UHGV virus genome: UHGV-0134783
Source of the DNA: a virus
DNA length: 29,685 bases
Strand: one strand, 5' to 3'
Part shown: positions 10,579 to 25,659 of the stretch, in pieces
Layout: each line of letters starts with the position of its first letter
Position numbering within the stretch: the first letter of the stretch is position 1
The notes under the pieces: model-generated
The model's input: only the letters and a program-made list of their open reading frames with translations
Told to the model about the DNA's origin: nothing
Database searches by the model: none
Translations under genes and position numbers: made by a program

Positions 10579-10579
10579 A

Positions 10580-11084: not shown

Positions 11085-12029
11085 TCAGTTACCAGCCGGA
11101 GGAGGAGTCGGTGCAGCCTTCTCCTTCACCACAGCAAACGAATCAAGCGACTCAATCGCAACATACAGCACAGCCTCGGCACGAACCATAACCTCATTAT
11201 GGCCCTTCAAGTCACGGCCAGTCTGATCCGGGTCACCATACTCGATCAGCTCGATCGGGAAGTTACGCTGGAACCCCCAATGAACACGAGAGAAATCACC
11301 AACAATAGCCTTAACACCAGAGGCAGGCGACATCTCCGGGGCACCCGAAACAGTCGAAGAAGCACCAACATTCAGCCCACGCCAATTATCCAAACCAGCA
11401 AACCCGGCGGCAGGATACATCGGCTGACCGGCAAGCGGAGACCCCTTCGGATACACCTCAGTAGACAGAGCAAACGAGAACGCCGGATCCAAAGCAACAC
11501 CGTTAGGAACCTGCAAACCAGCCCCAGCGATAAGGCCGACAGCCTTGACCAGATCAGCCGTAGCGGAATCGGTGGCATCAACCGTCTTCTTCGTCTTATC
11601 CAGCGACACCTTGACAGCCGCAGCAGGCTTCCCAGTGGCAGGATCAATACCGTGGAAAGCAATCAGATCCACGGCGCGACCAATCGAAGCACCCAAAGCG
11701 GGCGAAATCAGATCCTGCAAAACACCCAGACGGTAATCGGCGTCAGCCCACATAAACTCGTCGCTTACGCGCTGCTGAGTCACAACCTTGATAGGCTGCG
11801 CAGTAAACGCCGAAACATCAACCGAAGCGGAAGGCTTAACCTCACCCTCGCCAACAATCTTGGCGCGAGGAACACCAGAAAAAACGGCACCCTTAACAGG
11901 GCCGAAAATAGTCGGCTGCTCCGGCGAAAGCTTCGCCAAAACACCAGAATCGATAGCACGGTCACGAACCGCACCAATCATAGAACCAGGAAGCTCAAGC
12001 TTACCTGCAGAAAGAAAATCGTCAGCCAT
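11085..12029 (-). CDS. major capsid protein (HK97 fold)
   Basis: 314 aa. ATG with a strong TAGGAGA SD. Follows the scaffold gene. Sequence features typical of actinophage HK97-like capsid proteins. Confidence 0.85.
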   Translation of the reverse strand: MADDFLSAGKLELPGSMIGAVRDRAIDSGVLAKLSPEQPTIFGPVKGAVFSGVPRAKIVGEGEVKPSASVDVSAFTAQPIKVVTQQRVSDEFMWADADYRLGVLQDLISPALGASIGRAVDLIAFHGIDPATGKPAAAVKVSLDKTKKTVDATDSATADLVKAVGLIAGAGLQVPNGVALDPAFSFALSTEVYPKGSPLAGQPMYPAAGFAGLDNWRGLNVGASSTVSGAPEMSPASGVKAIVGDFSRVHWGFQRNFPIELIEYGDPDQTGRDLKGHNEVMVRAEAVLYVAIESLDSFAVVKEKAAPTPPPAGN

Positions 12030-12035
12030 CAGAAA

Positions 12036-12590
12036 TCATCTCCTAGAATTATTGACAAGAGCATCCACAAACGCGACACCCTCACGTCGTTTAACATCAT
12101 CAACGGGGGCACTCCCCGCAAGACGGCGCACACCCGCGCCACCACCACTATGGTCGATCAAACCCTTCAAAGCCTTAGCAGACTCCACCAATGCTTCACG
12201 ATCGCCACCGTGCAAGAAAGCGACCGCATCACCCGACAGGCCACACTCGGCAGCCACCTCACGCTTCACACCCTCAAGAACAAACCCATTAATCCGGTCT
12301 TCGAGTTCCTCATTCTTGCGGCGAAGATCATCAATCACAGACCCCGCATCACCATCCGAGGCGCGAAGCTTCTCCAACTCGGCGAAATTACTTTTAGCAC
12401 GAGACTCCCACTTACGGGCCTCAGCCTTCCAATCCGTGCCAGAAGAAGACTCCTCCTTCACGGAAACATCACCGGCATGATCATCGCCGGCAGCCTGCCC
12501 ATCCTTCACAACATCAACAACGTCTCCACCCTTTCCGGGCTCAACAGCATCATTGTCAACATTCTGTTCTTCAACTTTTTGATCGGCCAT
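12036..12590 (-). CDS. scaffolding protein
   Basis: 184 aa, highly acidic, predicted coiled coil (EELEDRINGFVLEGVKREVAAE). AAGGAG SD. Immediately upstream of the capsid gene. Confidence 0.75.
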   Translation of the reverse strand: MADQKVEEQNVDNDAVEPGKGGDVVDVVKDGQAAGDDHAGDVSVKEESSSGTDWKAEARKWESRAKSNFAELEKLRASDGDAGSVIDDLRRKNEELEDRINGFVLEGVKREVAAECGLSGDAVAFLHGGDREALVESAKALKGLIDHSGGGAGVRRLAGSAPVDDVKRREGVAFVDALVNNSRR

Positions 12591-12693
12591 AGCCTAACCC
12601 TATACTCCTTGCGGAAAACAACACAACATTGTTGACCCCCGTGCGGGAGACAACCCTGTGCACCGATAACCGGCGACACACAACCGGAAACCA

Positions 12694-13449
12694 TCATCTC
12701 ATGTCGCCAACAGTACGCATAGCCTTCAAAATATTGCCAGGCGACTGCTGCAACCCATGATCATCAACCCACTCACGAGCCTTCTCATACGTCCTCTGAT
12801 ACTCGGCATCAGCCCTATTCGGTTCCCAAGGGCCAACAACCTCAACCACCGTACACCCGCAATGATCATGATACTTCGAACCAAACGGACGCCTACCGGC
12901 ACGCTTATGACGCCGCGTATGACCAGTAGTAAGCGCCCGCTCCCTCGTCGTATAATCCGACCTCGTAGCCAACATGGCACAAAACGCGCACGGATCACCA
13001 TCAGTCACCCTGCGCCACGACCTACCCTGCGCACCCGCAGACCACTCAACCGTGTCACGGCCAGCATTCATCACAGCCCGATTAAAACCCGCCGCCATCG
13101 CACCAATCGTGTCATTCGCCCTATCCGGGTCACTCTTAAGAATCTTCATAGTCGAAAACGACCTAGCCAACGCGGCGGCAGCATCAAACTCGTCATACAC
13201 AATCAAACCAGGATCCACACCATTCAACCGGCGAAAATCCGACACAAACCTGGCAGCCAACGACGCCGAACCATCATGGCCGGCACGCTCCAACTCCCCA
13301 CACAAACGCACATACTGCGCATCTGTCATCTTCCCGGAATGCCACAAACGACCAAGCTCGGCATAATACCCAGCGTATTTCCCAGCAAACCTGACCGCCT
13401 CACGCTGATACTCAGTCGCAGCAAGCCTCGACGCAACACCCGAAGCCAT
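12694..13449 (-). CDS. head morphogenesis / minor capsid protein (MuF-like position)
   Basis: 251 aa, between the portal and scaffold genes. Cys cluster DPCAFCAML...HDHCGC. ATG at 13449. Confidence 0.55.
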   Translation of the reverse strand: MASGVASRLAATEYQREAVRFAGKYAGYYAELGRLWHSGKMTDAQYVRLCGELERAGHDGSASLAARFVSDFRRLNGVDPGLIVYDEFDAAAALARSFSTMKILKSDPDRANDTIGAMAAGFNRAVMNAGRDTVEWSAGAQGRSWRRVTDGDPCAFCAMLATRSDYTTRERALTTGHTRRHKRAGRRPFGSKYHDHCGCTVVEVVGPWEPNRADAEYQRTYEKAREWVDDHGLQQSPGNILKAMRTVGDMR

Positions 13450-13455
13450 CGCCTA

Positions 13456-14781
13456 TCAAACCTCGTTAGTTTGACGAGAAATAGCCCCAGCCAGCGCCGC
13501 CAACGGATCCGAAGACTCGGCACGATGACGCATCACAGCCTCAACCTGCACATCATCCAAACCCAACATCTCCAACACCGTCCGAGAATCCGCCGGCAAA
13601 ATACCGGCACCAACAAGCTTCGTCACAGCATCAGCCGTAGCCGCCCTGGTAGGCGTCGACGCATCACGCCAACGCAAACCAACATCACCAAAAAACGCGG
13701 CCTCATCAACACTCGAATCAAGCGCCCTGGCAGCCAAGAAACCAACCGACAGCCAGCCCTGACCAAACGACGTCTGCCTGCGTTCAGCACGCTTCACAAG
13801 CCGAGACTCCTCGGCAGCCAAAGCCTCCCCACTAGGCGGGTTAGACGTGATAAACCCGAAATAGCGTTCCGGAACAGCCGCCTCACCCGCAGTCAACTGC
13901 GCCAACAGCCTCATCTGATCCGAATACGGTGTAGGCGAATTGACAGGAAACGACCCCACATTCGGGGTATCACCGTCATCATCCTTATCCACAGCCCACA
14001 CAGAAGCCATCGACAGGACCCAGCCAGGCTGCGAAAACTCATCCGCGCTCACACCAGTCACCCAACGTTGAGGATACGCATAAAAATCACGATTCACAGA
14101 CTGCCCCAACAGTGTGCGAACAGCCTCATCAGTGTAAGCCCTAATAGACCTCGTAATCTCCGAACGCCCATCAATACGCGACGTCCTACGCCGATTCACA
14201 ATCGGCACCAACGGAACCGCCCCAAGCACATTCGGTATACGGCCCGTCTCAACCCACTCACGAGACCCACGCCGCTCCACCTGAACAATCACATCAGGCA
14301 ACAACAACTCAGCCTCAACAACCTCAGGATCACACGTCTGCTGCACCACCAAACCCGCATCCAAACGAGACCCATCAGCAGAAAACCGGCCAGTACAATT
14401 CTTCGGCGACTGCGGACGAACCAACACCGACCCATCATCCCGGGGAATAACAGCCACAAACGACAAACCAAAAATCAGTGCATCCAAATGCACATCACAC
14501 GACGCAGTAGCAAGCCGATTCGCAGCATACACACCATCCAGACCGTAGCCGTCACCATTAGTCCAGCCAAGCCAATCCAGACGCTCCTCCAAAGCATCCA
14601 CAGCAATACCAGGCCACGACACCACCGTCTGCACACGCTGCAACTCCGGCGGAATAGCCACCCCCAAATCACGCACCCGATTAGAGCCCTCATAGTAGCC
14701 CTCAATACGGCAATGCCACGAAGACAACCTTTGGATACGATCAAACATGCCCTCAATCAGAGCCAACTCATCCGAGTTCAT
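13456..14781 (-). CDS. portal protein
   Basis: 441 aa. ATGA overlap with the large terminase stop. Size and position are typical of SPP1-like portals. Confidence 0.85.
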   Translation of the reverse strand: MNSDELALIEGMFDRIQRLSSWHCRIEGYYEGSNRVRDLGVAIPPELQRVQTVVSWPGIAVDALEERLDWLGWTNGDGYGLDGVYAANRLATASCDVHLDALIFGLSFVAVIPRDDGSVLVRPQSPKNCTGRFSADGSRLDAGLVVQQTCDPEVVEAELLLPDVIVQVERRGSREWVETGRIPNVLGAVPLVPIVNRRRTSRIDGRSEITRSIRAYTDEAVRTLLGQSVNRDFYAYPQRWVTGVSADEFSQPGWVLSMASVWAVDKDDDGDTPNVGSFPVNSPTPYSDQMRLLAQLTAGEAAVPERYFGFITSNPPSGEALAAEESRLVKRAERRQTSFGQGWLSVGFLAARALDSSVDEAAFFGDVGLRWRDASTPTRAATADAVTKLVGAGILPADSRTVLEMLGLDDVQVEAVMRHRAESSDPLAALAGAISRQTNEV

Positions 14782-16289
14782 ACCACAGACACCCGCTTCC
14801 TACCAGACCGTTCACGCCGCCTAGCCTTCGCCATCTTCGCACCAAGATAAGCCAAAGACACAGCCTCCAAAGGAACCTCAGAACCATCCTTAAACGAGGA
14901 ACCCCAACCCCACGCAGAACCCTTCTTCTTCTGCACAGCCGACCTCACAGCAATATCCAACATGTCACGCCTCGAATCAGCCCTAGGGTGAGAAACCACA
15001 CCAGACCTTACACCCTCCAGGAACGCCTGACACGCCTCCACATACACCCCAGTATCAGCCACAATCACGCCACGACCCGGAACACCACGATCCGTCAACG
15101 CCTTCTGCAACAACACCGCACCAGACCCGGCAACCATGATCTTTTCAGTGTCACCCCAACGCAACGCCAACCAGTCAGCCAGCTGGCCCACACCATCAAC
15201 AATCGTGCCAGACAGGCCATCAATAACCTCAACATGAACCCCAGCATCAGTCTTGCCAGCACCAGCTAGCGCGACACGATCCCCCGAGCGAGAAAACGAG
15301 ACACCAAAAACCTTCCCGCCAACCAGAGCCGCCTCACCCACAGCCGACTGAACCCACTTATCGGCTGGTATCACCGACGAAGCAGACTGGCCACGATCCC
15401 ACCAGCCAAGCCGCTCCCGAGCAAACCCGGCCGCAGACATCGACTCATGCTCATCCGAGACTGTACCAAAATTCAGACGCCTACCCAGCGCAGGATTAGT
15501 ATCACCAGCCAACTTCCGCCACTGCCGCGACACATCATCCGGATCAGACTCGTCAGGAATCGAAAACTCCGTCCACGCAAACCTTTTACCACCCGACAAA
15601 GCCTGCCCACGCAAACGCAACACCACAGACCCGTCAGCCAACGGCCCAGGAGGAGTCCCCAAAAAAATCTGCTGAGGATCACCCGAAGGAGCCGCGCTCA
15701 CCGTAGGAAGCAAAGCCTCCAACTGCTCATCCGACAACTCCTGAGCCTCATCACACACCAAATCATCAACCGTAAACCCGCGAGCAGAACCCCGAGAACG
15801 GGCCACAAACTCAACCGAACCCCAACCCGGACAGCCACACTTACGCTCAAACGTGGCACAATCCGGATGATGCAACACAATAGCCTCCTGACCATTCGTC
15901 GCCCGAATCGACTTCACCATACGATACAAGTCAGGAAACTGCCGCTCATTCTCAAAAAACGACCTCAACCGCATAAACGCCTTACGAGCCGACTTCAACT
16001 CGTGAGCCGTATGCAAAATACGGCGACCCTGAATAGTCGCCTTAAACAACTCCACAACCTCCAAAATAGCATTCTTGCCATTCTGGCGAGGCACAAACAC
16101 CCCACACACACCCGAAGCAAGCCTGCCATTACCACCCACAGCAAGCCAATCATCCAACACCTGCTGCTGCCACGGATCAGGCGTCAACCCATAAGCCCTA
16201 CCAAGCTCACCCGCATCCCCGCCAGCAGACACCGAATACGCCGCAGCCACACGATGACGAGGCACCTGAGACCCAACAACACCAGACAC
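14778..16289 (-). CDS. terL: terminase large subunit
   Basis: 503 aa. Walker A VPRQNGKNAILEV and Walker B LVCDEAQEL in the N-terminal ATPase. C-terminal nuclease-like region. GTG start 4 nt after the small terminase TGA. Confidence 0.9.
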   Translation of the reverse strand: MSGVVGSQVPRHRVAAAYSVSAGGDAGELGRAYGLTPDPWQQQVLDDWLAVGGNGRLASGVCGVFVPRQNGKNAILEVVELFKATIQGRRILHTAHELKSARKAFMRLRSFFENERQFPDLYRMVKSIRATNGQEAIVLHHPDCATFERKCGCPGWGSVEFVARSRGSARGFTVDDLVCDEAQELSDEQLEALLPTVSAAPSGDPQQIFLGTPPGPLADGSVVLRLRGQALSGGKRFAWTEFSIPDESDPDDVSRQWRKLAGDTNPALGRRLNFGTVSDEHESMSAAGFARERLGWWDRGQSASSVIPADKWVQSAVGEAALVGGKVFGVSFSRSGDRVALAGAGKTDAGVHVEVIDGLSGTIVDGVGQLADWLALRWGDTEKIMVAGSGAVLLQKALTDRGVPGRGVIVADTGVYVEACQAFLEGVRSGVVSHPRADSRRDMLDIAVRSAVQKKKGSAWGWGSSFKDGSEVPLEAVSLAYLGAKMAKARRRERSGRKRVSVV

Positions 16290-16293
16290 CTAC

Positions 16294-16602
16294 TCAGGCC
16301 CCCCTACGCTTCCTATACCGGTCAATCATCGCCACCGCAGAACCCCCACCACGGCCACCAGACGCCACATCAACCGAATACCTATCCAACATGCCCATAA
16401 AAGCCTTCACATGAGCACGAAGCGAAGCCACCAAATCCGCGCGACCCTCACGCCACACCACATCATGAATCACCGCAGCATCCATAAGAAACAACCACTC
16501 CTCATCCGACACATACGGCGCGCGACTGTCCTCACCCCACACACGCCACCAACGACGCGTCTCCCCACACCAATCGTGTCCCTCAGGAAGCTCAGGCTGC
16601 AC
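16294..16602 (-). CDS. terS: terminase small subunit (start uncertain: longest ORF extends to GTG 16665, 2 nt from the cos site; GTG 16602 behind GGTGGTGAG preferred)
   Basis: First gene after the cos site and immediately before terL. The N-terminal extension KYLPFVVLSVCRLFVLVVSVV of the longest ORF is hydrophobic and lacks an SD. Confidence 0.55.
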   Translation of the reverse strand: MQPELPEGHDWCGETRRWWRVWGEDSRAPYVSDEEWLFLMDAAVIHDVVWREGRADLVASLRAHVKAFMGMLDRYSVDVASGGRGGGSAVAMIDRYRKRRGA

Positions 16603-16666
16603 AACACTCACCACCAACACAAAAAGTCGACAAACAGACAAAACCACAAAAGGGAGGTATTTCACT

Positions 16667-16677
16667 AAGCCGTACGA
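16667..16677. other. cos site: AAGCCGTACGA, the reverse complement of the 11-nt 3' cohesive-end sequence TCGTACGGCTT recalled for P. acnes phages; physical genome ends
   Basis: Exact 11-mer found precisely between the HNH endonuclease gene and the small terminase. Reverse complement of 16651-16666 gives AGTGAAATACCTCCC as the virion left-end sequence. Confidence 0.7.
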
Positions 16678-16728
16678 GGTCTTGCACGGGTGTGCAGGGG
16701 GTGGTCCCGGTGGGGGTTGGCGGGTTTT

Positions 16729-17031
16729 TCACCATGGAATCAATGTTTTTGTGGTTTGTTGTTGGAAACTAATGTTTGGTTCACTGCGATTGCCTTTGCT
16801 TCTGTTGCATGTTCTGCAGATGATTTGCCCGTTGTCGAGGGTGTTGAGTCCTCCGCGGCTGACGGGTGTGATGTGGTCGGCTTCGGGGCTGGTTGGCAGG
16901 TCGTGTGTGTCCCAGGCTATCTGGGCTCCGCAGAGTGGGCATTCGGTTTGGCCTTGCTTGCGTGCTTGGGTGATGAGTCTTGCCCGCCAGCGTCGGTGGG
17001 CTTGGCTGGCTGTGCGGTTGGTGCGTGCCAT
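16729..17031 (-). CDS. HNH endonuclease (packaging-associated, adjacent to cos)
   Basis: 100 aa. CPLCG...DHITPVSRGG...NGQIICRTCNRSKG is an HNH motif with a zinc-binding Cys pair. ATG at 17031. Ends 52 bp before cos. Confidence 0.85.
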   Translation of the reverse strand: MARTNRTASQAHRRWRARLITQARKQGQTECPLCGAQIAWDTHDLPTSPEADHITPVSRGGLNTLDNGQIICRTCNRSKGNRSEPNISFQQQTTKTLIPW

Positions 17032-17107
17032 GATGTGTCTGTTCCTCGCCTAGCCCTGTACTGGTCTTATTTGCCCCTCTAACGGCCTGGAATCGTCTGG
17101 GGGTATG

Positions 17108-17149
17108 AATACCCTACCGATGCCCTGCTGATCGATTCTGGGGGCTGTT
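17108..17149. promoter_or_regulatory. composite motif site A: TGGGGGTATGAATACC (17108-17123) + CTGATCGATTCT (17138-17149); 77-118 bp upstream of HNH on the minus strand
   Basis: The same two motifs recur at 18709-18743, with the ATCGAT-containing motif inverted, and in degenerate form at 19733-19754. Confidence 0.4.
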
Positions 17150-17559
17150 TTGTTCGTTTGAGGGGGTGTTCTGTTTGTGTCGGGGTGGTTGTTTTTTCCA
17201 CTACCCCCCGGCATGTGAGAAAGATCACATCGCCCCCCAGCTGTGTCAAAAGAGAAGGACACGGAAGAAAAATGGGGGTGGGTGTGTGTTCGCGTTTCAA
17301 GGCTTAGCGCCTAGCGCTGAAGTACACAGGCTAAGCGGGAACACCTTCAAAGTTTTTAAAGTCTTCTACATATAATATACACTTTAAGTCTTACCCGGTG
17401 TTAAGGGTGTTAGCGTGACACGCCGTACGCCTTCAGCCGAACACGCCAAGCATAAAAGGGACACGGGTGTAAGAGTGTGGGGAGTGTACAAACCGGGAGC
17501 GTGCGACCGGTGGTACACGAGACACACGGCGAAAGTCCATCGGCGCTGATGGTAAAAGG

Positions 17560-18050
17560 TTTCTCTTCTCCCCTGATGAAGAAAAGAAGAGAAGAGAGAA
17601 AGTACCAAAGAGAGTAGAGAAGTAAAGAAGTTAACCCTTTAACTCTTCTAAAACTTTTATAACTTATAAGCTTTAAGACTTATAGGTTATAATATTAAAG
17701 TTTAAGACTGATGGTTAATTTTAAGTACTTAAAGTCTTTAAAGTATCATAGTTACTTTAAGTGTTTAACTCTTTAAGTCTTAAACACTGATGTTAAGTTT
17801 ATATCCTTAAGCGCTAAGTCCTTAAGGTTTTATACTTAACTTAAGTGTTAAGGTTATATATTTACTTTAAGACTTTAAAGCTTTTATAGTAACTTAGATC
17901 CTTAAGGGCTAAGCCTTGAAGGTTTTAAAGTTACTATAAAGTACCTAAGACTGATGCCGAGCCCTTGAGGGGGCTCGGTGCTAAGCGTTAAGGTCTTAAG
18001 GGCTTAAGGGCTTAGCACTAAGCCTTGAGGCTTTTAAGTCTTTGGTAGAC
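17560..18050. repeat. AT-rich island densely packed with TTAAG / CTTAAG / TTTAAGACT / TTTAAGTCT short repeats (candidate replication origin / protein-binding array)
   Basis: Visibly far lower GC than the rest of the genome. TTAAG-type motifs occur every 10-20 bp. No credible ORFs. Confidence 0.6.
17961..17995. repeat. 35-bp direct repeat copy 1 with GC hairpin (CCGAGCCC-ttgagg-GGGCTCGG)
   Basis: CTGATGCCGAGCCCTTGAGGGGGCTCGGTGCTAAG. Near-identical copy at 18490-18523. Confidence 0.7.
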
Positions 18051-18489
18051 TGATGGATGTAAGGGTGAAAGCCGCGTCAGCGGATTTCGGCCTTGCGTCC
18101 AGCTGGCTACCTGTCCAGCCTATCATATGCCACCTGGGATGAGTCAAACTGGTGGATTTGGCTCTATAGGCGGGTTTGAGGGGTGTAAACGGGTGTTTTT
18201 GGTGGTAAAGGTCCAAAAATTAAACCTAAACTTTTCCTTAAATTTTCTTAGAGTCTTGTAACCTTTACAGGTGGTTAAGGCTGAAACCCCTAGCCAGAAC
18301 GGATTTCACCCCCGAACAGCTGTCACACTTTACTCCTGTGTCCTTTCCTAACACGCTAGGCCCATCAGTGCTGAGGGTGTTCCCTCAGGCTTTCGAGTAC
18401 TCGTCGCTGAGGCTCCTCGTACTCTCAAGCCTTCCCTGATGGCGTGTACCCCTTTCAGGGCTGTGCCTGATGAACTGAGCCTGCTCGGG

Positions 18490-18523
18490 CTGATGCCGAG
18501 CCCTTGAGGGGCTCGGTGCTAAG
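18490..18523. repeat. 34-bp direct repeat copy 2 with GC hairpin
   Basis: CTGATGCCGAGCCCTTGAGGGGCTCGGTGCTAAG, one G shorter in the loop than copy 1. Confidence 0.7.
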
Positions 18524-18708
18524 ACCTTAAGTACTTAAGTTAACCTTAAGGTGTGAAGGCTGATGTCCCCCCTTCTTTCTTTTACCGTGTCCTTCTTCCC
18601 CCCACGGTATCCAACACTGTCCACATAGTTGAGGCTTAGCTAACCAGGATAGGGGTTGATGATCTATGCCGAGATGGTTGATCGTGTATCGGGCTCTGGG
18701 ATGCGTCT

Positions 18709-18743
18709 AGAATCGATCAGAATTGCTTGGGGGTATGAATACC
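18709..18743. promoter_or_regulatory. composite motif site B: AGAATCGATCAG (18709-18720) + TGGGGGTATGAATACC (18728-18743), upstream of the early gene block
   Basis: Shares an identical 16-mer with site A plus the 12-mer in opposite orientation. Confidence 0.4.
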
Positions 18744-18865
18744 TAGCCCCCACCCTGTAAGGCGCTCCTAGGCGTACCCCTGAAGCTTTAAACGGCATTT
18801 CTGGGCTACACCCTTCATGCCAGATTGGAAGAGTGGCCTCGAGAGTGCACACTAAGCCAGGGGGA

Positions 18866-18881
18866 TGTGATACATCTCACA
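18866..18881. promoter_or_regulatory. TGTGA-N6-TCACA palindrome (CRP/GlxR-family binding-site consensus) ~180 bp upstream of the first early gene
   Basis: TGTGATACATCTCACA has perfect 5-bp arms. A TTGACA hexamer lies at 18987-18992. Confidence 0.3.
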
Positions 18882-19059
18882 CACCTAGATGATAGATCTT
18901 ATGTCTCAGCTCGGCGCCTTGACTCGCTAGATCATCTGTCACACCCGACACACCCCATGAAACGCTCAACCGGTTTGAGCGCAACCTTGACAGTGGGTCA
19001 CAGCCCACACACTCTAGAAACCACAACAACCCCCACAACCACCGAAAGGAACATCACTC

Positions 19060-19368
19060 ATGGATGGCACACTCATCACACCATCATTCACCAGCCTCTA
19101 TGGGCAGACAGAAATCGACCCGCTCAGCCTCCACAGCCTCACCGGAAACCATTCAGACGACATCGATCTCGATATGGTGCGCCGCATGTACCACGCTAAA
19201 GTACAAGAAGCCATACGACTCATCCGACCCCTGTGGACTGTCACCCGCGACAGCGCCGTATACGGAGACTGTGACTGGCGCCACCTATCCGAGAATGAGG
19301 CCGAGGAGCTCCACGATCTCATCGACATGATCGACGTAGACGCCATCCTCGCTGAAGCTATACGATAA
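19060..19368 (+). CDS. early protein, hypothetical (paralog of next gene)
   Basis: 102 aa, acidic. SD GAAAGGAAC 8 nt upstream of the ATG. Confidence 0.7.
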   Translation: MDGTLITPSFTSLYGQTEIDPLSLHSLTGNHSDDIDLDMVRRMYHAKVQEAIRLIRPLWTVTRDSAVYGDCDWRHLSENEAEELHDLIDMIDVDAILAEAIR

Positions 19369-19399
19369 AAACCATCCACACACCAGAAAGGAACCCGTC

Positions 19400-19711
19400 A
19401 TGCAAAAGATCGCCGACCACTTCACCCAGCTCTACAGCCCCGCCAGCTACGACTGCCCTGAGCCTTTCGACCTGACACGCCTCGAAAACCTCCCCTGCGA
19501 CCACATGGATTTTGAGGGCCTCGCCGAAACCTACCGGCAGCATGTGGAAGCCGAACTTCATAAGCTACGCCCCAACACGTTCATCGCCACCGATGGCACC
19601 GTGTTCAGCCATGACGAGTGGAAGCCACTCACCAGTGAGGAAGCCACGCAACTCTACTGGAACGTGACCCGCATCAATGTTGGCCAACTCCTCACCCTGT
19701 GTGCCCGATAA
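19400..19711 (+). CDS. early protein, hypothetical (paralog of previous gene)
   Basis: 103 aa. Same CCAGAAAGGAAC ribosome-binding context. Shares FTxLY, D..D......Y...V......LRP, T.D..V....W..L[ST]..EA..L and a C-terminal L....R with the 19060 gene. Confidence 0.7.
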   Translation: MQKIADHFTQLYSPASYDCPEPFDLTRLENLPCDHMDFEGLAETYRQHVEAELHKLRPNTFIATDGTVFSHDEWKPLTSEEATQLYWNVTRINVGQLLTLCAR

Positions 19712-19732
19712 GCCCCAGTCGCACACAATGAG

Positions 19733-19754
19733 CCTAGAATCGCCTAGAAATACC
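19733..19754. promoter_or_regulatory. degenerate third copy of composite motif (CCTAGAATCG + CCTAGAAATACC) in the intergenic region before the zinc-ribbon gene; TATAAT hexamer at 19816-19821
   Basis: Shares CTAGAATCG with site B and GAA(A)TACC with the 16-mer core. Confidence 0.3.
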
Positions 19755-19838
19755 TGACCTATATAGTTGTACCCCCAAGACTCGCAAGGCGCTAAAATGG
19801 CACTACAGGAAGTCTTATAATGGAAAATAGGAGCAATC

Positions 19839-20126
19839 ATGCAATGGACATGCCACAAGTGCGATAGCACAATCATCGGATACAAGCCAGAGCACTGCAC
19901 AATCTGCCACGAAACATTCACGAGTACCACCTCAGGCGACATGCACCGGGTAGGCGACCACGGGGTCAAGACAGGCCCCAATCGCCGCAGGTGCCTCACT
20001 ATCGACGAGATGGACGCCAAGGGCATGCAGCGCAACAAACTCGGATACTGGACCAGCGGTGGCACATCCTATTGGGCGAAAGAAGCCATCACCCCTAGCC
20101 ACACAAGAAACGCTCACAACATTTGA
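19839..20126 (+). CDS. zinc-ribbon protein (C-x2-C-x11-C-x2-C), hypothetical
   Basis: 95 aa. TAGGAG SD. CHKCDS...CTICHE. Confidence 0.65.
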   Translation: MQWTCHKCDSTIIGYKPEHCTICHETFTSTTSGDMHRVGDHGVKTGPNRRRCLTIDEMDAKGMQRNKLGYWTSGGTSYWAKEAITPSHTRNAHNI

Positions 20127-20209
20127 GCGACACCTTGACACAGGCCACCGCCCACACCATGATTAATCATGTCAGCAACGAACAACACCCCGGAAAGGGG
20201 ACAACAATC

Positions 20210-20743
20210 ATGAACAAGAAAACAGGCTACACCATCGCCGGCGCCACCATCGCCATCATCGCCGCAGCCTCCTTCCTCCCGGCACCCGACGATAATCCGC
20301 CACTCGCCTCACAGCCAGCACCACAGGCCACCACAGCCAACACTGAATGGACCCCCAAAACCGTCCAACAGCGCAAAGCCGAAAAGAAAGCCCGCCAGGC
20401 AGCCGCAGTCCGCTCCCTACAAGCCGAACAGGCCAAAACCCACAAGCAAGCCCAAACACGGGGTGAAGAAACCAGCAAGGGGCTGACCATGATCACCGCG
20501 GCACACGCCTGCAATGACAAGGCTGAGCAGATGGCTGCAGCACAGGGTGTCAAATGGAACGGCAACCCCGACATCGACCTCCAACTCCACAAAATTATTG
20601 GTAAAGACACCTTCTCCATCGTCTACGGCGCAACCGTCCGCCAGCCGGGAGCATCCAAACTCCCAGTCACCGTCCACTGCCTCGTCACCGGAACAGAAGA
20701 CCACCCGCACGTCACCGACCTCAACATCAACCCGCAACAGTAA
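20210..20743 (+). CDS. membrane-anchored protein (N-terminal signal-anchor, Gln/Lys/Ala-rich coiled segment, C-terminal domain), hypothetical
   Basis: ATG at 20210 behind a GGAAAGGGGA SD. The TTG 20123 start of the ORF track has no SD. Transmembrane segment YTIAGATIAIIAAASFLPA. Confidence 0.6.
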   Translation: MNKKTGYTIAGATIAIIAAASFLPAPDDNPPLASQPAPQATTANTEWTPKTVQQRKAEKKARQAAAVRSLQAEQAKTHKQAQTRGEETSKGLTMITAAHACNDKAEQMAAAQGVKWNGNPDIDLQLHKIIGKDTFSIVYGATVRQPGASKLPVTVHCLVTGTEDHPHVTDLNINPQQ

Positions 20744-20765
20744 CCCGCCAAGGAGCATCCCCGCT

Positions 20766-20993
20766 ATGCCTCTCCTCTCCCACTACGCTGTCACCACCGG
20801 ACTCGCCGACACGGCACACATTATTCACCACACCGGCGGCACACTACGCACAGCCACCGATATTGCCTCCCGCATCAACACCCTCAACCCAGACATTGAT
20901 CTCGACCACGAAATCCACCAACTGTTATCTATCGAAACCAACCTGTACAACATTTACAAAACCATCAACACCATTCTTCAGGAGCAAGCATGA
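20766..20993 (+). CDS. hypothetical protein
   Basis: 75 aa. ATG at 20766 with an AAGGAG SD. The upstream part of the ORF overlaps the previous gene out of frame. Confidence 0.55.
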   Translation: MPLLSHYAVTTGLADTAHIIHHTGGTLRTATDIASRINTLNPDIDLDHEIHQLLSIETNLYNIYKTINTILQEQA

Positions 20994-21190
20994 ACACACC
21001 CAACAACATTGAGCTACACAGCTACGAAACGTTCTTCACCACACTGGCATGGATACAGGGCGCCATCATCACATGGATGTACGCCACCGGCACCAGCCAC
21101 AAGGCAGCTCTCGCCATTATTGCCGCATGCGCCCTCACTATCCTCCTGGGTGCCTCAACCCTCACCTACCAGCCAAAAAACCACAAATGA
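20990..21190 (+). CDS. small two-helix membrane protein
   Basis: 66 aa. ATGA overlap with the previous stop. CAGGAGCAAGC SD. Hydrophobic helices WIQGAIITWMYA and AALAIIAACALTILLGA. Confidence 0.6.
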   Translation: MNTPNNIELHSYETFFTTLAWIQGAIITWMYATGTSHKAALAIIAACALTILLGASTLTYQPKNHK

Positions 21191-21270
21191 TCACAACACC
21201 CATCCTCATCGCGGAAACCCTCGCCATCATCATTCTCGCCGTAGCACTCGCCCACAACCCCAACCAGTAA
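21187..21270 (+). CDS. 27-aa single-helix membrane micro-protein (MITTPILIAETLAIIILAVALAHNPNQ)
   Basis: ATGA overlap with the preceding gene's stop, implying translational coupling. Entirely hydrophobic core. Small size gives lower confidence. Confidence 0.4.
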   Translation: MITTPILIAETLAIIILAVALAHNPNQ

Positions 21271-21295
21271 CCCCACACGTAAGGAGCACACACCC

Positions 21296-21655
21296 ATGGA
21301 TGAGCCCACCAGCATGTACACCGACCCTGACACTGGTGCCCGAAAAGAATTGAAACTTTGCAGGCTATCCCTCATCGACCCCGCAGCCTTGCACGATCTA
21401 GGCTCCGTGGCCGGATATGGTGCCACCAAATACGGCGACAACAACTGGACCGGCGGATACCCGTGGAGCTACAGTGTCGACGCCCTCTACCGGCACCTAC
21501 TATCATGGCAGCAAGGACGCAACCTCGATGATGAATCCGGGCTACCCCACCTGGCCCATGCTGCCTGGCACTGCCTAGCACTCCTCGCATACCAGCAACA
21601 CCACGCCGGCCAAGACACCCGCAACCCATGGAACACCCACAAAGGCGACAAGTAA
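21296..21655 (+). CDS. hypothetical protein (conserved phage domain, His/Trp-rich motifs)
   Basis: 119 aa. TAAGGAGCAC SD. GATKYGDNNWTGGYPWSY...LAHAAWHCLALLAY. Confidence 0.65.
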   Translation: MDEPTSMYTDPDTGARKELKLCRLSLIDPAALHDLGSVAGYGATKYGDNNWTGGYPWSYSVDALYRHLLSWQQGRNLDDESGLPHLAHAAWHCLALLAYQQHHAGQDTRNPWNTHKGDK

Positions 21656-22602
21656 TGCCTCTAGCACAATACCCGAAAACCATCGGCCATCCAGGCCACA
21701 TCTCCTACTCATCACTGTCACAGTGGGCCGAATGCGGAGAAAAATGGCGCCTTCAACACGGCTACCATGCCCAACGCCACACCTGGTACGCCACCATCGC
21801 CGGAAGCGCCATACACCACATCACCGAACAATACGACCTACACCTGTACAATCCCGCCGAATACCCTGCACTGCCAGACAAACTCGCATCCTTCAAAAAC
21901 ATTTTCGACACCCAAGTCGCCCTCGCCGAATCCGAAGGCACAGAAATCAAACCCTCCGGCAGAATATGCAAAAACATGTGCGAGTCGGGCGGGCCACACA
22001 AGAAAGACTACGACTGGTGGATGGTTTACGGCCCCACCTTTGTGGACCGGTGGAAAACATGGAGGCGCAACCACCCAGAATACATCACCGCTGTTATTGA
22101 CGGCCAGCCAGGCATCGAATACCCGGTAGAAACCACTCTCCAAGACGGCACCCAGATCGTTGGCTACATCGACCGCGTTTTCACCGACACCGACACCGGT
22201 GAAACCTTCATCCTCGACCTCAAAACCGGACGCCTACCCGCCGACAGCATGCAGCTGCACACCTATCGGTACATGCTCAACCAACACGGCAACGATGTGA
22301 CAAAAGGCATGTTTTGGACACCCGCCACCACCAAGGGAGACGAGCAATCAGTCGAGCAGGGCACAGCAACCGAACTCATTGATCTTGACAACAACACCTA
22401 CCGGCATGTATCATCCATGTACAGTCAAGCAATGAAAGGAATCAGTCAAGGCATCTTCGTACCCCACGTCACAGCACTCTGTAAAGGCTGCCCCGTCAAG
22501 GACGCCTGCTGGGCCGTCAACGGCAAAAACTCGTACAGATACCCGGTAGAAACCACCGTACAGCCACCCCAAACAGACAATAAAGAAAAGGAAAACAAGT
22601 GA
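21655..22602 (+). CDS. Cas4/RecB-like PD-(D/E)XK exonuclease with Fe-S cysteine cluster
   Basis: ATGA overlap at the start. N-terminal Cys (WAECGEKW), catalytic motif GYIDRV...ILDLKTG, a QLHTYRY motif, and a C-terminal C-x2-C-x5-C (CKGCPVKDAC). Confidence 0.8.
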   Translation: MPLAQYPKTIGHPGHISYSSLSQWAECGEKWRLQHGYHAQRHTWYATIAGSAIHHITEQYDLHLYNPAEYPALPDKLASFKNIFDTQVALAESEGTEIKPSGRICKNMCESGGPHKKDYDWWMVYGPTFVDRWKTWRRNHPEYITAVIDGQPGIEYPVETTLQDGTQIVGYIDRVFTDTDTGETFILDLKTGRLPADSMQLHTYRYMLNQHGNDVTKGMFWTPATTKGDEQSVEQGTATELIDLDNNTYRHVSSMYSQAMKGISQGIFVPHVTALCKGCPVKDACWAVNGKNSYRYPVETTVQPPQTDNKEKENK

Positions 22603-23009
22603 CAGAAGAGCACACCACAGACAATGATCGACTCACTATCACACTCAAATATGGTGGAGACTATGCTGCACCATGGACCGTCATTAGGGGAGACACAGCA
22701 GAGCAGACAAAACAGGCCATCATCGACCTGCTAGGAGGATTGAAAGACGAAACCGTATCGAAAGACTGGGATCTTGCAACACTCGTAGCGAGCGCATCCA
22801 TCATCCTCCAAGACCGATACAATCATGCCACCAAAGACTACGTAAACAAAATCGCCAATCAGGAAAACGACATCATCATTGACCGGATCAACAAAGCCAC
22901 CAGCAAAGCACAGCTAGCAGACCTTCTAAAACAGTACAAAAAGATCATCACCAGCAATAGCGACGTGTCAGAGGCTTTCCGCACTAAACGAAACAGCCTC
23001 ACCCGATAA
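22599..23009 (+). CDS. hypothetical protein
   Basis: 136 aa. GTGA overlap start with an AAGGAAAACAA SD. Confidence 0.55.
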   Translation: MTEEHTTDNDRLTITLKYGGDYAAPWTVIRGDTAEQTKQAIIDLLGGLKDETVSKDWDLATLVASASIILQDRYNHATKDYVNKIANQENDIIIDRINKATSKAQLADLLKQYKKIITSNSDVSEAFRTKRNSLTR

Positions 23010-23059
23010 ACCAATATAAGCCAACAATAACAGACACAACAGTAAAGGATAACACCATT

Positions 23060-23524
23060 ATGGGACTCGCCAACTACCGCAACAGCAATAACAGCACCTT
23101 CTTCAATCCGTCCAAAAACCAGGACGCCACCGCCATCGCCTTCAAAGTGCACGACGTGGAACACAACACTGAAGGCTACGGTGGACAGACCGCAGACCGC
23201 ATCTACGCTGATGTCACAATCTTCCACACCCTAGACGATCTCAACAACGGTACCCCAGAAACCATCCCCAACGCTATTATTGAGAAAGCCCGCGGCAACA
23301 ACGACCGCCCACACTCCATGATCCGCGAACTCGAAGCATACCTTGGCGAGGAGCAAGCATTCAAACTCGCCACAGTGCGCACCAAAAACGGGTTCAACGC
23401 CGTCATCCTCAAACCATTGGACGACGCCATCTACGATAAGGTTGCCGAATACGTAGACAAGCGCGATAACGGCCAGCTAGACGACACCACAGCCTCTACT
23501 GACATCGATATCGACTCCATCTGA
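23060..23524 (+). CDS. hypothetical acidic protein
   Basis: 154 aa. AAAGGATAACACC SD. Confidence 0.65.
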   Translation: MGLANYRNSNNSTFFNPSKNQDATAIAFKVHDVEHNTEGYGGQTADRIYADVTIFHTLDDLNNGTPETIPNAIIEKARGNNDRPHSMIRELEAYLGEEQAFKLATVRTKNGFNAVILKPLDDAIYDKVAEYVDKRDNGQLDDTTASTDIDIDSI

Positions 23525-23570
23525 CCACCAAAACATCATCCAACCGATAGACAGATAGATTAAGGCTCCG

Positions 23571-24434
23571 ATGCTCTCTCTACAACGATCCTTCGAGAGG
23601 GCCTCCCAAACAGCCGCCGAGCTGCCCCGCATACCCCAGCTAGAACCCCTCTACCGCAACCTGGACATGCACATCCACAAAGGGGATTTGGTGATGATTG
23701 CGGGGCGCTCCGGCAGCCAAAAATCCGGGCTAGCAATGTTCATCACAGCAATGCTCAACCAGCCCGCCCTCTACATATCAGGGGACATGACACCCTGGGA
23801 GGCCTCCACACGAATCATCTCCCTCAACACCCAACACACCACCCAGCAAATACAACAAAACATCGACGACTACGGGCCAGAATACTATCGAGACAGCATC
23901 CACCACGGCGGACACATCACATTCTCATTCCAGTCGCCCATCACATGGACAGACATCACCATGGAATTGCAAGCCTACATGGAAATGTGGAACACCTTCC
24001 CACCACTCATTGTTATCGACAACCTGATGGACATTCAAGACTGCGAATCAGACTACCAGGCCCAGCAAGAAGCCATGCAATGGATCACAGCATTGGGTAG
24101 GGATACTGGCTCCACTATTATTGTCACACACCACGCAACCGACAAAACCGGAACCGACATCGAACACCCGCCAGCACGCAGGGAAATCAAAAACGGGCTC
24201 TCCGAAAAACCACAACTCATCCTCGGAGTCTCATTGTATGGTGGCGAGGATAATGGCAACGGGCTCACTATAACGGCAGAGGCTCGCATCGCCGTGCTCA
24301 AACAGCGCACCGGCAAATCCAGCCCCGACGGCACCCGATACGAGCGGCTACGAGCCTACCCCGAATACACATTCTTCGGACCCCTCGTCGAAAAACAGCC
24401 ATGGAACATGACCACAACACACAAAGGACTATGA
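23571..24434 (+). CDS. DnaB-like replicative helicase (C-terminal RecA-fold ATPase domain only)
   Basis: Walker A GDLVMIAGRSGSQKSG. Walker B LIVIDNLMD. 287 aa. Confidence 0.8.
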   Translation: MLSLQRSFERASQTAAELPRIPQLEPLYRNLDMHIHKGDLVMIAGRSGSQKSGLAMFITAMLNQPALYISGDMTPWEASTRIISLNTQHTTQQIQQNIDDYGPEYYRDSIHHGGHITFSFQSPITWTDITMELQAYMEMWNTFPPLIVIDNLMDIQDCESDYQAQQEAMQWITALGRDTGSTIIVTHHATDKTGTDIEHPPARREIKNGLSEKPQLILGVSLYGGEDNGNGLTITAEARIAVLKQRTGKSSPDGTRYERLRAYPEYTFFGPLVEKQPWNMTTTHKGL

Positions 24435-24790
24435 TGGCTTCACAGCAGGCACGCAACCGGCGGGCCGGAGCCGAATGGGAAACAAGACTCCTCCACCAGC
24501 TACGCAACACCGGTTACGACATCGAACGCCTCCACCTCAACGGTCAAGAGGACGAGGGAGACCTGATCCTCAAAACCGGCAACAAAACCTATGTGATCGA
24601 AGCCAAAGCCGGACAGCCACACCTAGCCCAATTCGTGAAACAAGCCAGCCGGGAGGCACGCAACTACGAAACACACCGAAACAAACAAAACAATTCCACC
24701 ATCGGACTCGTAGTGATGAAACAGCGCAACAAGCCATGGAGCGAAGCCTATGTGGTATCAACCCTCAACGAGCTCCTCCCACACCTCTGA
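24431..24790 (+). CDS. Holliday-junction resolvase-like PD-(D/E)XK nuclease (Hjc-like)
   Basis: ATGA overlap. GAEWETRLL..L...GYDIERL....EDEGDLILK...KTYVIEAKAG matches the E-D-ExK pattern. Confidence 0.7.
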   Translation: MMASQQARNRRAGAEWETRLLHQLRNTGYDIERLHLNGQEDEGDLILKTGNKTYVIEAKAGQPHLAQFVKQASREARNYETHRNKQNNSTIGLVVMKQRNKPWSEAYVVSTLNELLPHL

Positions 24791-25151
24791 CACCTGCCGC
24801 CTCCTCGACACCTACCGGATACGGTACAATCCGTCCCGAAACGAGCAACACATCCTCTGCCCGTTCCACGACGACCACCAGCCCTCCATGAGCATCAACC
24901 TCGACAAGGGCGTCTGGTACTGCCACACATGCGGTGTCGGAGGCGGACTCGCCAAACTACAACAACGATTAGAAGAAGAAAACCCGAATGTACGACAGCA
25001 TACGCCCATACAACATTGCGGAACGCCGCCGAATCCAGAAAGCCTCGGCCCTCTACGAAACCCACCTCGAAAACATACTCGACCTCCTCTCAGCAAGAGG
25101 CATCAGCGAAGAAACAGCCCGCTACCACCACCTTGGATACATCGACAATGA
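24750..25151 (+). CDS. DNA primase N-terminal zinc-binding (CHC2) module; ORF continues out of frame over primase core
   Basis: CPFHDDHQPSMSINLDKGVWYCHTCGVGG. GGAGCGAAG SD. After about residue 80 the ORF becomes Pro/Arg-rich junk that overlaps the next gene. Confidence 0.6.
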   Translation: MWYQPSTSSSHTSDTCRLLDTYRIRYNPSRNEQHILCPFHDDHQPSMSINLDKGVWYCHTCGVGGGLAKLQQRLEEENPNVRQHTPIQHCGTPPNPESLGPLRNPPRKHTRPPLSKRHQRRNSPLPPPWIHRQ

Positions 25152-25659
25152 CCCCATACCCGGCCACGAAAACTACAACCAGTGCATCACCATCCCATAC
25201 ATGTACCCCGTTTGGGGTGGCCCAGCCGAAATACGAAAAATGCGTTTCCGCTGCTCACTCCCGCACGACTGCAAAACCCACAACCACCCCAAATACCTAA
25301 CCCCGGCAGGAGACACAGGCTCCATCTACAACATGGCCGCCATGGCCAACCCGCAAACAGACATGCATATTTGCGAAGGCGAATTCGACTCCATGATCCT
25401 CGAACAATGCGGATGGTCGGCCGTAGCACTACCCGGCGCAACCTCGTGGCAAACTTTTTGGACCAAATTCTTCGAAGGCTACGACCACATCTACATATGG
25501 TCCGACCCAGACAAGGCGGGCCACCAGATGGCCCAAACCCTCCAGGCAGCACTCCCCCAAGCCACCCACGTACCCCTCACTGTCGGTGACGTCACAGACA
25601 CCTACCTGCAGGCCGGAAAAACAGGGTTGACACAAGCACTAGACACTGTGCTACAGTAA
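24988..25659 (+). CDS. DNA primase catalytic core (TOPRIM, DnaG-like)
   Basis: ICEGEFDSM and DPDKAG TOPRIM motifs. The frame opens at 24973, one nt out of phase with the zinc-finger ORF. Confidence 0.75.
   Translation: MYDSIRPYNIAERRRIQKASALYETHLENILDLLSARGISEETARYHHLGYIDNDPIPGHENYNQCITIPYMYPVWGGPAEIRKMRFRCSLPHDCKTHNHPKYLTPAGDTGSIYNMAAMANPQTDMHICEGEFDSMILEQCGWSAVALPGATSWQTFWTKFFEGYDHIYIWSDPDKAGHQMAQTLQAALPQATHVPLTVGDVTDTYLQAGKTGLTQALDTVLQ

Follow-up and report, generated by a model that had tools for sequence, protein, structure and literature searches.

A gene-oriented sequence module, probably a family of promoters, repeated at the heads of gene blocks in a Cutibacterium acnes phage

When the same short sequences recur ahead of several gene blocks of one phage genome, are they promoters, operators, or signals of another kind? 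The question is raised by the virus genome UHGV-0134783, a stretch of 29,685 nucleotides (nt) that we analyzed in full and call the window. A preliminary description, made from the letters alone, had noted two repeated motifs in it, the 16-mer TGGGGGTATGAATACC and the 12-mer AGAATCGATCAG, had taken them to mark the three main regulatory regions, and had expected them to be operator or promoter elements through which a single phage or host regulator coordinates an early-late switch. Here we report that both motifs belong to a larger module that is repeated in non-coding DNA and always points toward genes. We consider it probable that the copies are paralogous promoter modules, one at the head of each main gene block; a single regulator driving an early-late switch is plausible.

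Anatomy and placement of the module

A megablast search with positions 16900-19100 matched 232 Propionibacterium/Cutibacterium acnes phage genomes of the genus Pahexavirus at 80-90% identity. Because these matches fall on the opposite strand, near the right ends of the Pahexavirus genomes, we conclude that the window represents the whole genome (~29.7 kb) of a Cutibacterium acnes phage of this genus, in reverse-complemented and permuted form. The genome end (cos) lies at ~16667 (a published left-end primer sequence matches 16642-16667), and the two gene arms converge on a bidirectional terminator at 29610-29658. The motif sites sit in and beside a large non-coding region near the right end, which Marinelli et al. 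(2012) described as low in GC, with conserved low-complexity runs and a change of skew, and proposed as the origin of replication. As relatives we used 80 Pahexavirus loci retrieved via the first right-arm protein, a route that is unbiased regarding the motif; per-position conservation figures for the copies named L and R1 below come from an alignment of 67 relatives.

Read toward the genes, the module consists of the 14-mer CTAGAATCGATCAG (offset 0-13), a spacer of 12-16 nt, an AT-rich box (offset 25-35) and (TA)CCCCCA (offset 36-45). The window carries three copies, which we call L, R1 and R3, each of them in non-coding DNA and each aimed at the genes downstream. Of the 80 relatives, 73 have a fourth copy, R2, ~215 nt ahead of the first right-arm gene; it is absent from the window and from seven relatives. 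Aligned four ways, L, R1, R2 and R3 match over ~90 nt with a mean column identity of 67% and a fixed geometry, the run of C standing at offset 38 in all of them but R1, where its offset is 40. The core of the module measures ~45 bp, with similarity between copies detectable over ~80-90 bp.

It is clear that the motifs are real and far beyond chance. TGGGGGTATGAATACC has exactly two copies on the plus strand, at 17098-17113 and 18728-18743, and when up to three mismatches are allowed it is matched three times against 0.22 expected, a number reached in 0 of 100 shuffles. AGAATCGATCAG also has exactly two copies, one on the minus strand at 17128-17139 and one on the plus strand at 18709-18720. 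For the composite we asked for CTAGAATCG with at most one mismatch together with five or more consecutive C at offset 34-48; this combination occurs three times in the window, against a mean of 0.08 in first-order Markov simulations, of which 0 of 300 reached three.

The exact repeats named in the preliminary description were therefore recovered, the 16-mer twice and the 12-mer once direct and once inverted. Their right-hand coordinates (18728 and 18709) are correct, whereas the left-hand ones had been placed 10 nt too high, at 17108 instead of 17098 and at 17138 instead of 17128. L and R1 share an identical 16-mer because both hold the near-palindrome GGTAT-NN-ATACC; on the minus strand L reads GGTATTCATACCCCCA, and R1 reads TGGGGG-TATGAATACC-TAG-CCCCCA. 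At the third site, CCTAGAATCG and CCTAGAAATACC do lie within 19733-19754 as described, but CCTAGAAATACC is better taken as a second CTAGAA repeat, 10 bp past the first, than as a decayed 16-mer. The true counterpart of the 16-mer is CTATATAGTTGTACCCCCAAG (19759-19779), which a repeat search pairs with 18726-18746 in inverted orientation, in agreement with the four-way alignment. Direct AGAA(T) repeats with a period of 10-11 bp are a feature of R1 (CTAGAAT/TCAGAAT), R2 (CTAGAAG/CTAGAAT) and R3.

Copy L is made up of CCAGAATCGATCAG (17141-17128), a spacer, TAGGGT (17116-17111), the dyad in GGTATTCATACC, and CCCCCA (to 17098), and it stands 67-110 nt upstream of the HNH start codon (17031). R1, ~310-350 nt upstream of the first right-arm gene, runs from CTAGAATCGATCAG (18707-18720) through TCAGAAT, which repeats AGAAT 10 bp on, and a variable 4-nt spacer to TGGGGGTATGAATACC (18728-18743), TAG and CCCCCA (18747-18752); its TGGGGGTATGAATACC includes a TATGAA box (18734-18739) and the dyad GGTAT-GA-ATACC. 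R3 combines CCTAGAATCG (19733-19742), CCTAGAAATACC (19743-19754), TATAGT (19762-19767) and TACCCCCA (19770-19777), 60-105 nt upstream of the zinc-binding gene. In relatives, R2 has the form CCCTAGAAGGGCCCTAGAATCGATCAG-N14-(T/C)ATAAT-CCTACCCCCAG and belongs to a segment of ~140-230 bp that is missing from the window.

The gene coordinates (Table 1) agree with the placement given earlier, upstream of the HNH/late genes, of the first right-arm block and of the zinc-ribbon gene. The notion of three main regulatory regions holds in so far as the family stands at the heads of units; it does not allow for the fourth copy, R2, in most relatives, or for the accessory nature of R3, which is found in only 15 of 80.

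Table 1. Positions in the window of the module copies and of the genes and elements around them
Feature	Position	Strand	Remarks
Structural/lysis arm and HNH endonuclease	1-17031	minus	
HNH endonuclease gene	16729-17031	minus	first gene downstream of copy L; from the annotation of relatives
Copy L	17098-17141	minus	anchor 17141; toward HNH, cos, terminase and structural genes
Element adjoining L upstream, ACAAAACAG (plus strand CTGTTTTGT)	17145-17153	minus	near-invariant
Copy R1	18707-18752	plus	anchor 18707; toward right-arm genes
Scar of missing R2	18933-18947	plus	one remaining copy of the imperfect direct repeat ATCTGYCACACCC that bounds R2 in relatives
Right-arm genes	19060-29587	plus	
First right-arm (replication/early) gene	19060-19368	plus	phrog_919; downstream of R1 (and of R2 in relatives)
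Copy R3	19733-19779	plus	anchor 19734; toward the zinc-binding gene
Zinc-binding (zinc-ribbon) accessory gene	19839-20126	plus	Pfam PF24071, E = 6e-11; predicted to be served by R3
132-amino-acid protein, C-terminal helix-turn-helix like sigma-70 region 4 or KorA	28681-29079	plus	

Match to the host promoter and conservation among relatives

Vegetative (sigma-A type) promoters of C. acnes follow a consensus, defined by Lin et al. (2013, PMC3848588), of GnTTnG near -36 and TAnnnT near -9. From the 71 mapped host promoters in the supplement of that paper we built a position weight matrix (PWM) model comprising -10, -35 and spacing matrices. When these promoters are aligned, all 71 have A2 and T6 in the -10 box, and the -35 box begins 26 nt upstream of it; in some the -35 box is GAATCG or GATTCG, at a spacing close to that of the module (20 nt in tRNA-Leu CAA). 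Scored with the PWM, the host promoters have a median of 13.6 bits and a 10th percentile of 7.0. A generic sigma-70 and terminator scan, by comparison, returned nothing at the motifs and no more sites than in shuffles. An Rfam scan of 16500-20000 with E up to 5 gave four sub-threshold, chance-level matches, none at the motifs, and a tRNA gene scan found none.

With GAATCG, a distance of 19 nt and TATAGT, R3 scores 13.3 bits and is the best plus-strand site in the whole 29.7-kb window. Its -10 box varies among relatives (TATAGT, TATAAT, TACAAT), and TAnnnT is kept in all of them. R2 has GAATCG at the same 19-nt distance from its -10 box, which in relatives is TATAAT or CATAAT at the module offset, with ATAAT nearly invariant; its scores have a median of 7.0 and a maximum of 13.8 bits. 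At the corresponding position R1 has TATGAA (TATAAA in most relatives) and L has TATTCA, with TAGGGT 5 nt earlier in L. In both of these copies the dyad GGTAT-NN-ATACC is centred 3-9 nt upstream of the predicted start. The -35 part alone contributes 4.1 bits in R3, 5.0 in L and 2.3 in R1. The earlier expectation of operator or promoter elements can accordingly be narrowed to one cis-regulatory family at unit heads, oriented to genes, whose fit to a promoter is good for R3 and for R2 of the relatives.

Selection on the module was judged from the footprint left in a divergent allele and from a distant phage of C. avidum, with plain conservation set aside. R1 is present in 80 of 80 relatives, and its 14-mer plus AAT is invariant over 17 nt, far tighter than host -35 boxes. 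In eight relatives that have a divergent allele around R1, the surrounding DNA is 0.2-0.7 identical to the majority (0.4-0.6 in the flanks of the copy) and positions 18706-18746 are 0.9-0.99 identical, an island of ~41 bp that corresponds to -40 to +1 of the predicted start. The flank AAAACAGCCCC, the same as that upstream of L, precedes R1 in these eight relatives. In L itself, conservation is at least 90-100% for the ATCGA core, for A26 and T30 of YARRGT, and for GTATTCATACCCC; the near-invariant ACAAAACAG that adjoins L upstream might represent an A-tract or a UP-like element.

The C. avidum phage CA1NRNZ (PV441878.1, 33.7 kb) has only 70 bp that can be aligned with the motif region, and it carries two copies of the same geometry that overlap head-to-head, at 30867 (plus) and 30921 (minus), ~48 nt upstream of its first right-arm gene. 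Its plus copy is ~65% identical to L over 82 nt and is aimed at the HNH gene of that phage. Conservation in relatives, whose lack would by the preliminary description have been a refutation, is thereby borne out: the module is kept in the 80 relatives and in this distant phage. The -10-like boxes of the two CA1NRNZ copies, TATATT (plus) and CAGTCT (minus), are adjacent on opposite strands, so that RNA polymerase could occupy just one of them at once. The L-like copy would transcribe a 1.5-kb AT-rich region before the methyltransferase and HNH genes, and the same non-coding region holds ~10 more (C/T)TAGAA(T) motifs. An exact scan of IMG/VR for the 14-mer returned Pahexavirus contigs plus single, apparently chance, matches elsewhere and was uninformative.

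Wherever R3 occurs among the relatives, it occurs together with the zinc-binding gene, and compared with most relatives the two form an insertion of ~390 bp between conserved genes; in relatives without R3 another signal comes directly after the preceding gene. By sequence and distribution, R3 and the zinc-binding gene appear to be a moron-type accessory cassette with its own upstream element. The cassette (19712-20108) is bounded by an imperfect direct repeat of ~15 bp, GCCCCAGTCGCACAC at ~19712-19730 and ACCCCTAGCCACAC at ~20093-20108, which suggests gain or loss by recombination between short repeats. It is present in five of the seven relatives that lack R2, and no terminator was seen at its 3' end.

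Paralogous promoters are the best supported explanation of the module because R3 and R2 fit the host PWM, the variants keep TAnnnT, R1 leaves a footprint in the divergent allele, the copies are oriented toward genes, and R3 is linked to its cassette. In this scheme the module would have been duplicated to the head of each Cutibacterium phage transcription unit. GAATCG of CTAGAATCGATCAG would lie at the position of the host -35 box (GnTTnG), a -10-type box would follow 25-33 nt after the start of the 14-mer, and (TA)CCCCCA would coincide with the predicted start; the predicted +1 positions are ~17104 (minus), 18746 (plus) and 19774 (plus). R3 in the window and R2 in relatives, which have a canonical TAnnnT, would be read directly by the host sigma-A RNA polymerase, and R3 would be the private promoter of the accessory gene cassette.

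L, facing the HNH/late genes, and R1, facing the right arm, flank the origin-like non-coding region. In these two copies the upstream block is kept, the dyad GGTAT-NN-ATACC would fall at the -10/start region and no T would stand at -7, so that each may be weak alone and controlled by a protein on the 14-mer, on the dyad or on both. The lack of T6 in the box, the dyad near the start and the over-tight 14-mer together suggest that L and R1 are factor-dependent or repressible. Within ~290 nt upstream of HNH the minus strand has no other host-type promoter of at least 5 bits, the nearest match being at 17326, and for this reason we infer that L is the natural candidate for the late promoter. Since cos lies at ~16667, transcription from L into the terminase and structural genes requires a circular or concatemeric genome.

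Other signals within the copies were considered and rejected. An inward-facing promoter could be drawn from the 16-mer at L, where TACCCT on the plus strand keeps TAnnnT, but GAATCG is only 14 nt upstream (6.1 bits); at R1 the minus strand lacks TAnnnT. An RNA hairpin GGGGG...CCCCC at R1 is contradicted by eight relatives in which the C-run is swapped for GGGTTGAGGG without a compensating change.

Competing explanations and a candidate regulator

Several observations weigh against promoters in the register proposed above. R1 reaches only 1.4 bits in it and L 3.7, because their boxes are without T at position 6, and GAATCG fits only three of the four specified -35 positions. On the minus strand, which is rich in G and T, the PWM gives noisy results (17 sites of at least 13 bits, those listed all inside genes), and because it is unreliable there we restrict rank-based conclusions to the plus strand. 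The 14-mer is conserved much more tightly than a -35 box requires. TAGAAT within it is moreover a perfect TAnnnT, and of two hexamers in L, YAGRAT (offset 1-6) and YARRGT (offset 25-30), each varies at positions 1, 3 and 4 but holds on to A2 and T6, which makes the register ambiguous. Canonical TTGACA-type promoters stand just upstream of the first right-arm gene (~18990) and at ~20135, so that right-arm expression is explicable without R1. With 80-90% identity throughout the Pahexavirus group, conservation as such is weak evidence; it reaches 80-100% over all 2 kb of the non-coding region, where the motifs are surpassed by other blocks. The searchable literature, which is incomplete, gave no transcription start site, RNA or binding data for any Pahexavirus.

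If the other register is taken, TAGAAT would itself be the -10 box, with starts ~7 nt on (~17128 on the minus strand, 18720 and 19747 on the plus strand), and the rest of the module, with the AT-rich box, the dyad and the C-run, would be a conserved 5' leader, maybe an RNA hairpin or otherwise regulatory. We regard this as unlikely. It is true that TAGAAT scores 7.2 bits in R1 and 6.5 in R3, near the host 10th percentile, that its variants in relatives (TAGGAT, CAGAAT, TATAAT, CATAAT, CAGTAT) keep A2 and T6, and that the similarity between copies begins abruptly at CCTAGAAT and extends ~80 nt downstream; in one distant relative, which has TTGACA-N18-TAGATTCGG after a terminator, the motif is clearly a -10 box. 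Yet no common or conserved -35 box is found upstream of TAGAAT, where the flanks vary between copies and alleles, and L in the window has CAGAAT, at -3.3 bits. The island at R1 would cover -14 to +26, an odd footprint for a promoter, R2 and R3 hold a far better promoter 22 nt downstream, and the putative leader hairpins vary between copies with no covariation seen. A second view, which comes nearest to the single-regulator switch, sees operators only: the 14-mer, the dyad or both would be bound by a phage or host protein that represses or activates neighbouring promoters. The invariance of the R1 14-mer plus AAT, the 10-11-bp period of the AGAA(T) repeats, and the 5-2-5 palindrome of L and R1 over the predicted -10/start, a classic repressor position, all speak for it, as does the presence of a phage-encoded helix-turn-helix protein resembling sigma region 4 or KorA; the head-to-head overlap of the C. 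avidum copies would make occupancy mutually exclusive. R2 and R3, however, are without the dyad, and in R3 the ATCGAT core is broken as well (GAATCGCC); a complete host promoter nonetheless fits the two of them. Where relatives differ in the arms of the dyad (GGTAC, ACACC), no compensation is seen, and the assignment of the 28681 product to DNA binding falls below curated thresholds. Operators alone are in our judgment an improbable explanation, and one that overlaps with promoter modules and does not exclude them.

The position of L and R1, inverted and 1.57 kb apart around the origin proposed by Marinelli et al., invites the thought that they bound a replication origin, as an inverted repeat around a 1.6-kb AT-rich, skew-inverted region that would serve in initiation, looping or recombination. 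GC skew is indeed inverted only across 16800-18400, the inverted repeat reaches ~25 nt (AAAACAGCCCCTAGAATCGATCAG) in eight relatives, and R1 marks an allele boundary. This leaves out R2 and R3, which are direct copies outside the region and attached to genes, R3 in an accessory cassette 1 kb off; the copies are dispersed and gene-oriented, unlike tandem iterons, both copies of the C. avidum phage lie on one side of its AT-rich region, and the non-coding region is without a match in plasmids. We therefore hold an origin boundary to be very unlikely. We give still less credence, indeed hardly any, to a neutral relic of segmental duplication with no present function. The high identity throughout these phages does make conservation weak evidence, and short direct repeats around R2 and R3 show that recombination has shuffled the region, but the R1 core is kept within divergent flanks, the module is retained in the otherwise unalignable C. 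avidum phage, its orientation toward genes is strict, and its variation respects TAnnnT.

If a protein does read the module, the obvious candidate is the product of the gene at 28681, a choice that is ours and goes beyond the matches themselves. The preliminary description had named the products at 26810, 28061 and 28681 as possible helix-turn-helix regulators. We scanned right-arm proteins against Pfam (20 proteins), PHROGs (10) and NCBIfam (5), and in these scans the 28681 product is the only one with a detectable DNA-binding signature; 26810 and 28061 are without one. Its match to Pfam Sigma70_r4 (E = 6.6e-5) is below the curated cut-off, PHROGs return 'sigma factor' at E = 1e-5, and NCBIfam gives weak matches only. 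An AlphaFold model has a pLDDT (predicted local distance difference test) of 77.6, and with it Foldseek finds region 4 of SigL/SigA and KorA at a TM (template modelling) score of ~0.6 to the target, with E-values of 0.3-1, which speaks for no more than a generic helix-turn-helix of this type. The family is an orphan, as homologue searches gave Pahexavirus copies plus two or three relatives at ~30% identity. The homologue in phage PA6, gp24, has been annotated as sigma-like (Lood and Collin 2011, PMC3094311). A distant relative, the ENA metagenome contig L202, has helicase, primase and exonuclease in the same order and a sigma-like protein that is 33% identical; at L202 500-660 a terminator is followed by TTGACA-N18-TAGATTCGG upstream of a gene block, with a CTAGAWTCG motif as the -10 box.

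One can go further and picture L and R1 not as ordinary promoters but as the two arms of a phage switch. The 28681 product would read the 14-mer, through tandem CTAGAA half-sites at -35, and would replace or redirect region 4 of the host sigma-A in the manner of MotA, and the dyad over the starts would let one factor close the right arm and open the HNH/structural operon. As a complete scheme this is improbable. Were it true, the L/R1 switch could also decide whether Pahexavirus phages grow lytically or are carried as episomes, the 'pseudolysogenic' state reported for them, and the overlapping switch arms of the C. avidum phage would be mutually exclusive.

Surrounding sequence and comparison with known systems

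The non-coding region between L and R1 holds further signals. CTGATG occurs ten times, on the plus strand only, within 17546-18565 (at 17546, 17573, 17708, 17787, 17951, 18050, 18436, 18467, 18490 and 18560), often inside (T)A(A)GACTGATG; by our estimate ~0.3 would be expected per strand. The set may serve the putative origin as a signal, either iteron-like or strand-specific, and no hammerhead or other Rfam match was found in its region. The best-conserved non-coding part, 17563-17662 (~100 nt), is at least 95% conserved in the 67 relatives save for a few single-base breaks. It is a plus-strand polypurine run (CTCTTCTCCCCTGATGAAGAAAAGAAGAGAAGAGAGAAAG...), and the C. avidum phage has a comparable one (L207 3600-3670). 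A 22-codon open reading frame (ORF; MVKGFSSPLMKKRREERKYQRE) at 17549-17617 lies inside this block; the block is conserved including synonymous positions, which argues for a constraint on DNA or RNA over coding, and GenBank records differ in the tiny ORFs annotated around it.

Two other blocks are strongly conserved, ACACTGTCCACATAGT at 18614-18629 and CGTCCAGCTGGCTACCTGTCCAGCCTA at 18096-18122. Within the former, CTGTCCACA fits eight of nine positions of TTGTCCACA, which we take to be the actinobacterial DnaA-box consensus. The latter overlaps a strong minus-strand match to the host-type promoter (TAGGCT at 18122, -35 box GTTTGACT, 12.0 bits), and this stretch is common to the C. avidum phage, being its sole BLAST-alignable piece. 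A GC-rich hairpin unit, CTGATGCCGAGCCCTTGAGGGGCTCGGTGCTAAG, occurs twice, 539 bp apart, at 17951-17985 and 18490-18523. The GC skew of the plus strand is positive only at 16800-18400 and elsewhere lies between -0.1 and -0.46 whatever the coding strand; it is a local patch and not a single switch point.

A second, unrelated motif family is found at 18957-19020 and 20108-20165, directly ahead of two genes, the first of the right arm and the one that follows the zinc-ribbon cassette. It has the dyad ACGCTCA-N6-7-TGAGCG, with a stem that is conserved and a loop that is variable in relatives, then CCTTGACA right after the dyad and a CAnnnT box (CACTCT or CATGAT) 17 nt on. CCTTGAC is invariant in the 67-sequence alignment, and the C. 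avidum phage has a related dyad at 30128.

C. acnes phages are in development as acne therapeutics and as engineering chassis, and no promoter or transcription map is known for them. A 45-bp module at the heads of units gives start-site predictions that can be tested, marks places in the genome that are safe or unsafe to edit, and offers portable parts, namely promoters that the host would read (R3 and R2) and candidates for regulated ones (L and R1). If L and R1 are factor-dependent, they would open the first way into early-late timing, and perhaps into pseudolysogeny, in an unusually uniform genus.

Among known systems, the module is most readily compared with the sigma-A promoters of the host. 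R3 and R2 resemble these in having GAATCG 19 nt upstream of TATAGT, TATAAT or CATAAT. They differ in that the -35 block of the module is 14-17 nt long and almost invariant, whereas the host -35 is weakly conserved, that L and R1 are without T6, and that host promoters do not have a C-run at the start. In the literature, as far as our incomplete coverage reached, we found no paper describing the composite motif or a start-site map of a Pahexavirus. For phages PA6, PAD20 and PAS50, BPROM was used by Lood and Collin (2011, PMC3094311) to predict sigma-70 promoters; those upstream of gp45/gp46 lie in AT-rich repeats (PA6 28708-28763), others lie elsewhere, none is at the module, and the motif is unmentioned there. 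Marinelli et al. (2012) consider the origin idea alone.

Moron cassettes offer a further comparison, which like those with phiC31, T4 and L5 below is one of architecture only, in that R3 and the zinc-binding gene are inserted between conserved genes with their own upstream signal, with the difference that R3 is a paralogue of the phage's own main module and not foreign DNA. The Streptomyces phage phiC31 has near-identical promoter repeats at its early units, some of them with a palindromic CIR operator; it is temperate, and its repressor is known. It too is an actinobacterial phage with repeated promoter regions at the heads of early units. In Pahexavirus no repressor or integrase is known and no stable lysogens are reported (Marinelli et al. 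2012). The sequences are unrelated to those of phiC31, and in our genome one copy also faces the late genes.

In the middle promoters of phage T4, a MotA box at -30 replaces the -35 box and is combined with a sigma-70 -10 box, in what is called sigma appropriation by MotA and AsiA. The likeness is one of architecture only: a tight phage motif at -35 with a host-type -10, and a small sigma-related phage protein. Here, in contrast, GAATCG may be read by the host sigma-A directly, and neither the MotA nor the AsiA family was returned for the right-arm proteins scanned (Pfam 20, PHROGs 10, NCBIfam 5). Mycobacteriophage L5 has asymmetric 13-bp operators or 'stoperators', at some 20-30 sites within transcription units. 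The module shares with these an asymmetric actinophage motif of 13-14 bp that overlaps a promoter -35 and is always oriented with transcription, but there are 3-4 copies per genome (three in the window), all non-coding and at unit heads, and no repressor gene has been identified. The copies are not arranged as iterons either, being dispersed (at 17.1, 18.7 and 19.7 kb), with L inverted and one copy in a cassette. Because the defining features of iterons, stoperators and MotA promoters were looked for and are absent, the module is not a member of these families. Apparently undescribed so far, it is most likely an element of an expected kind, a family of host-type promoters that carry a phage-specific upstream block.

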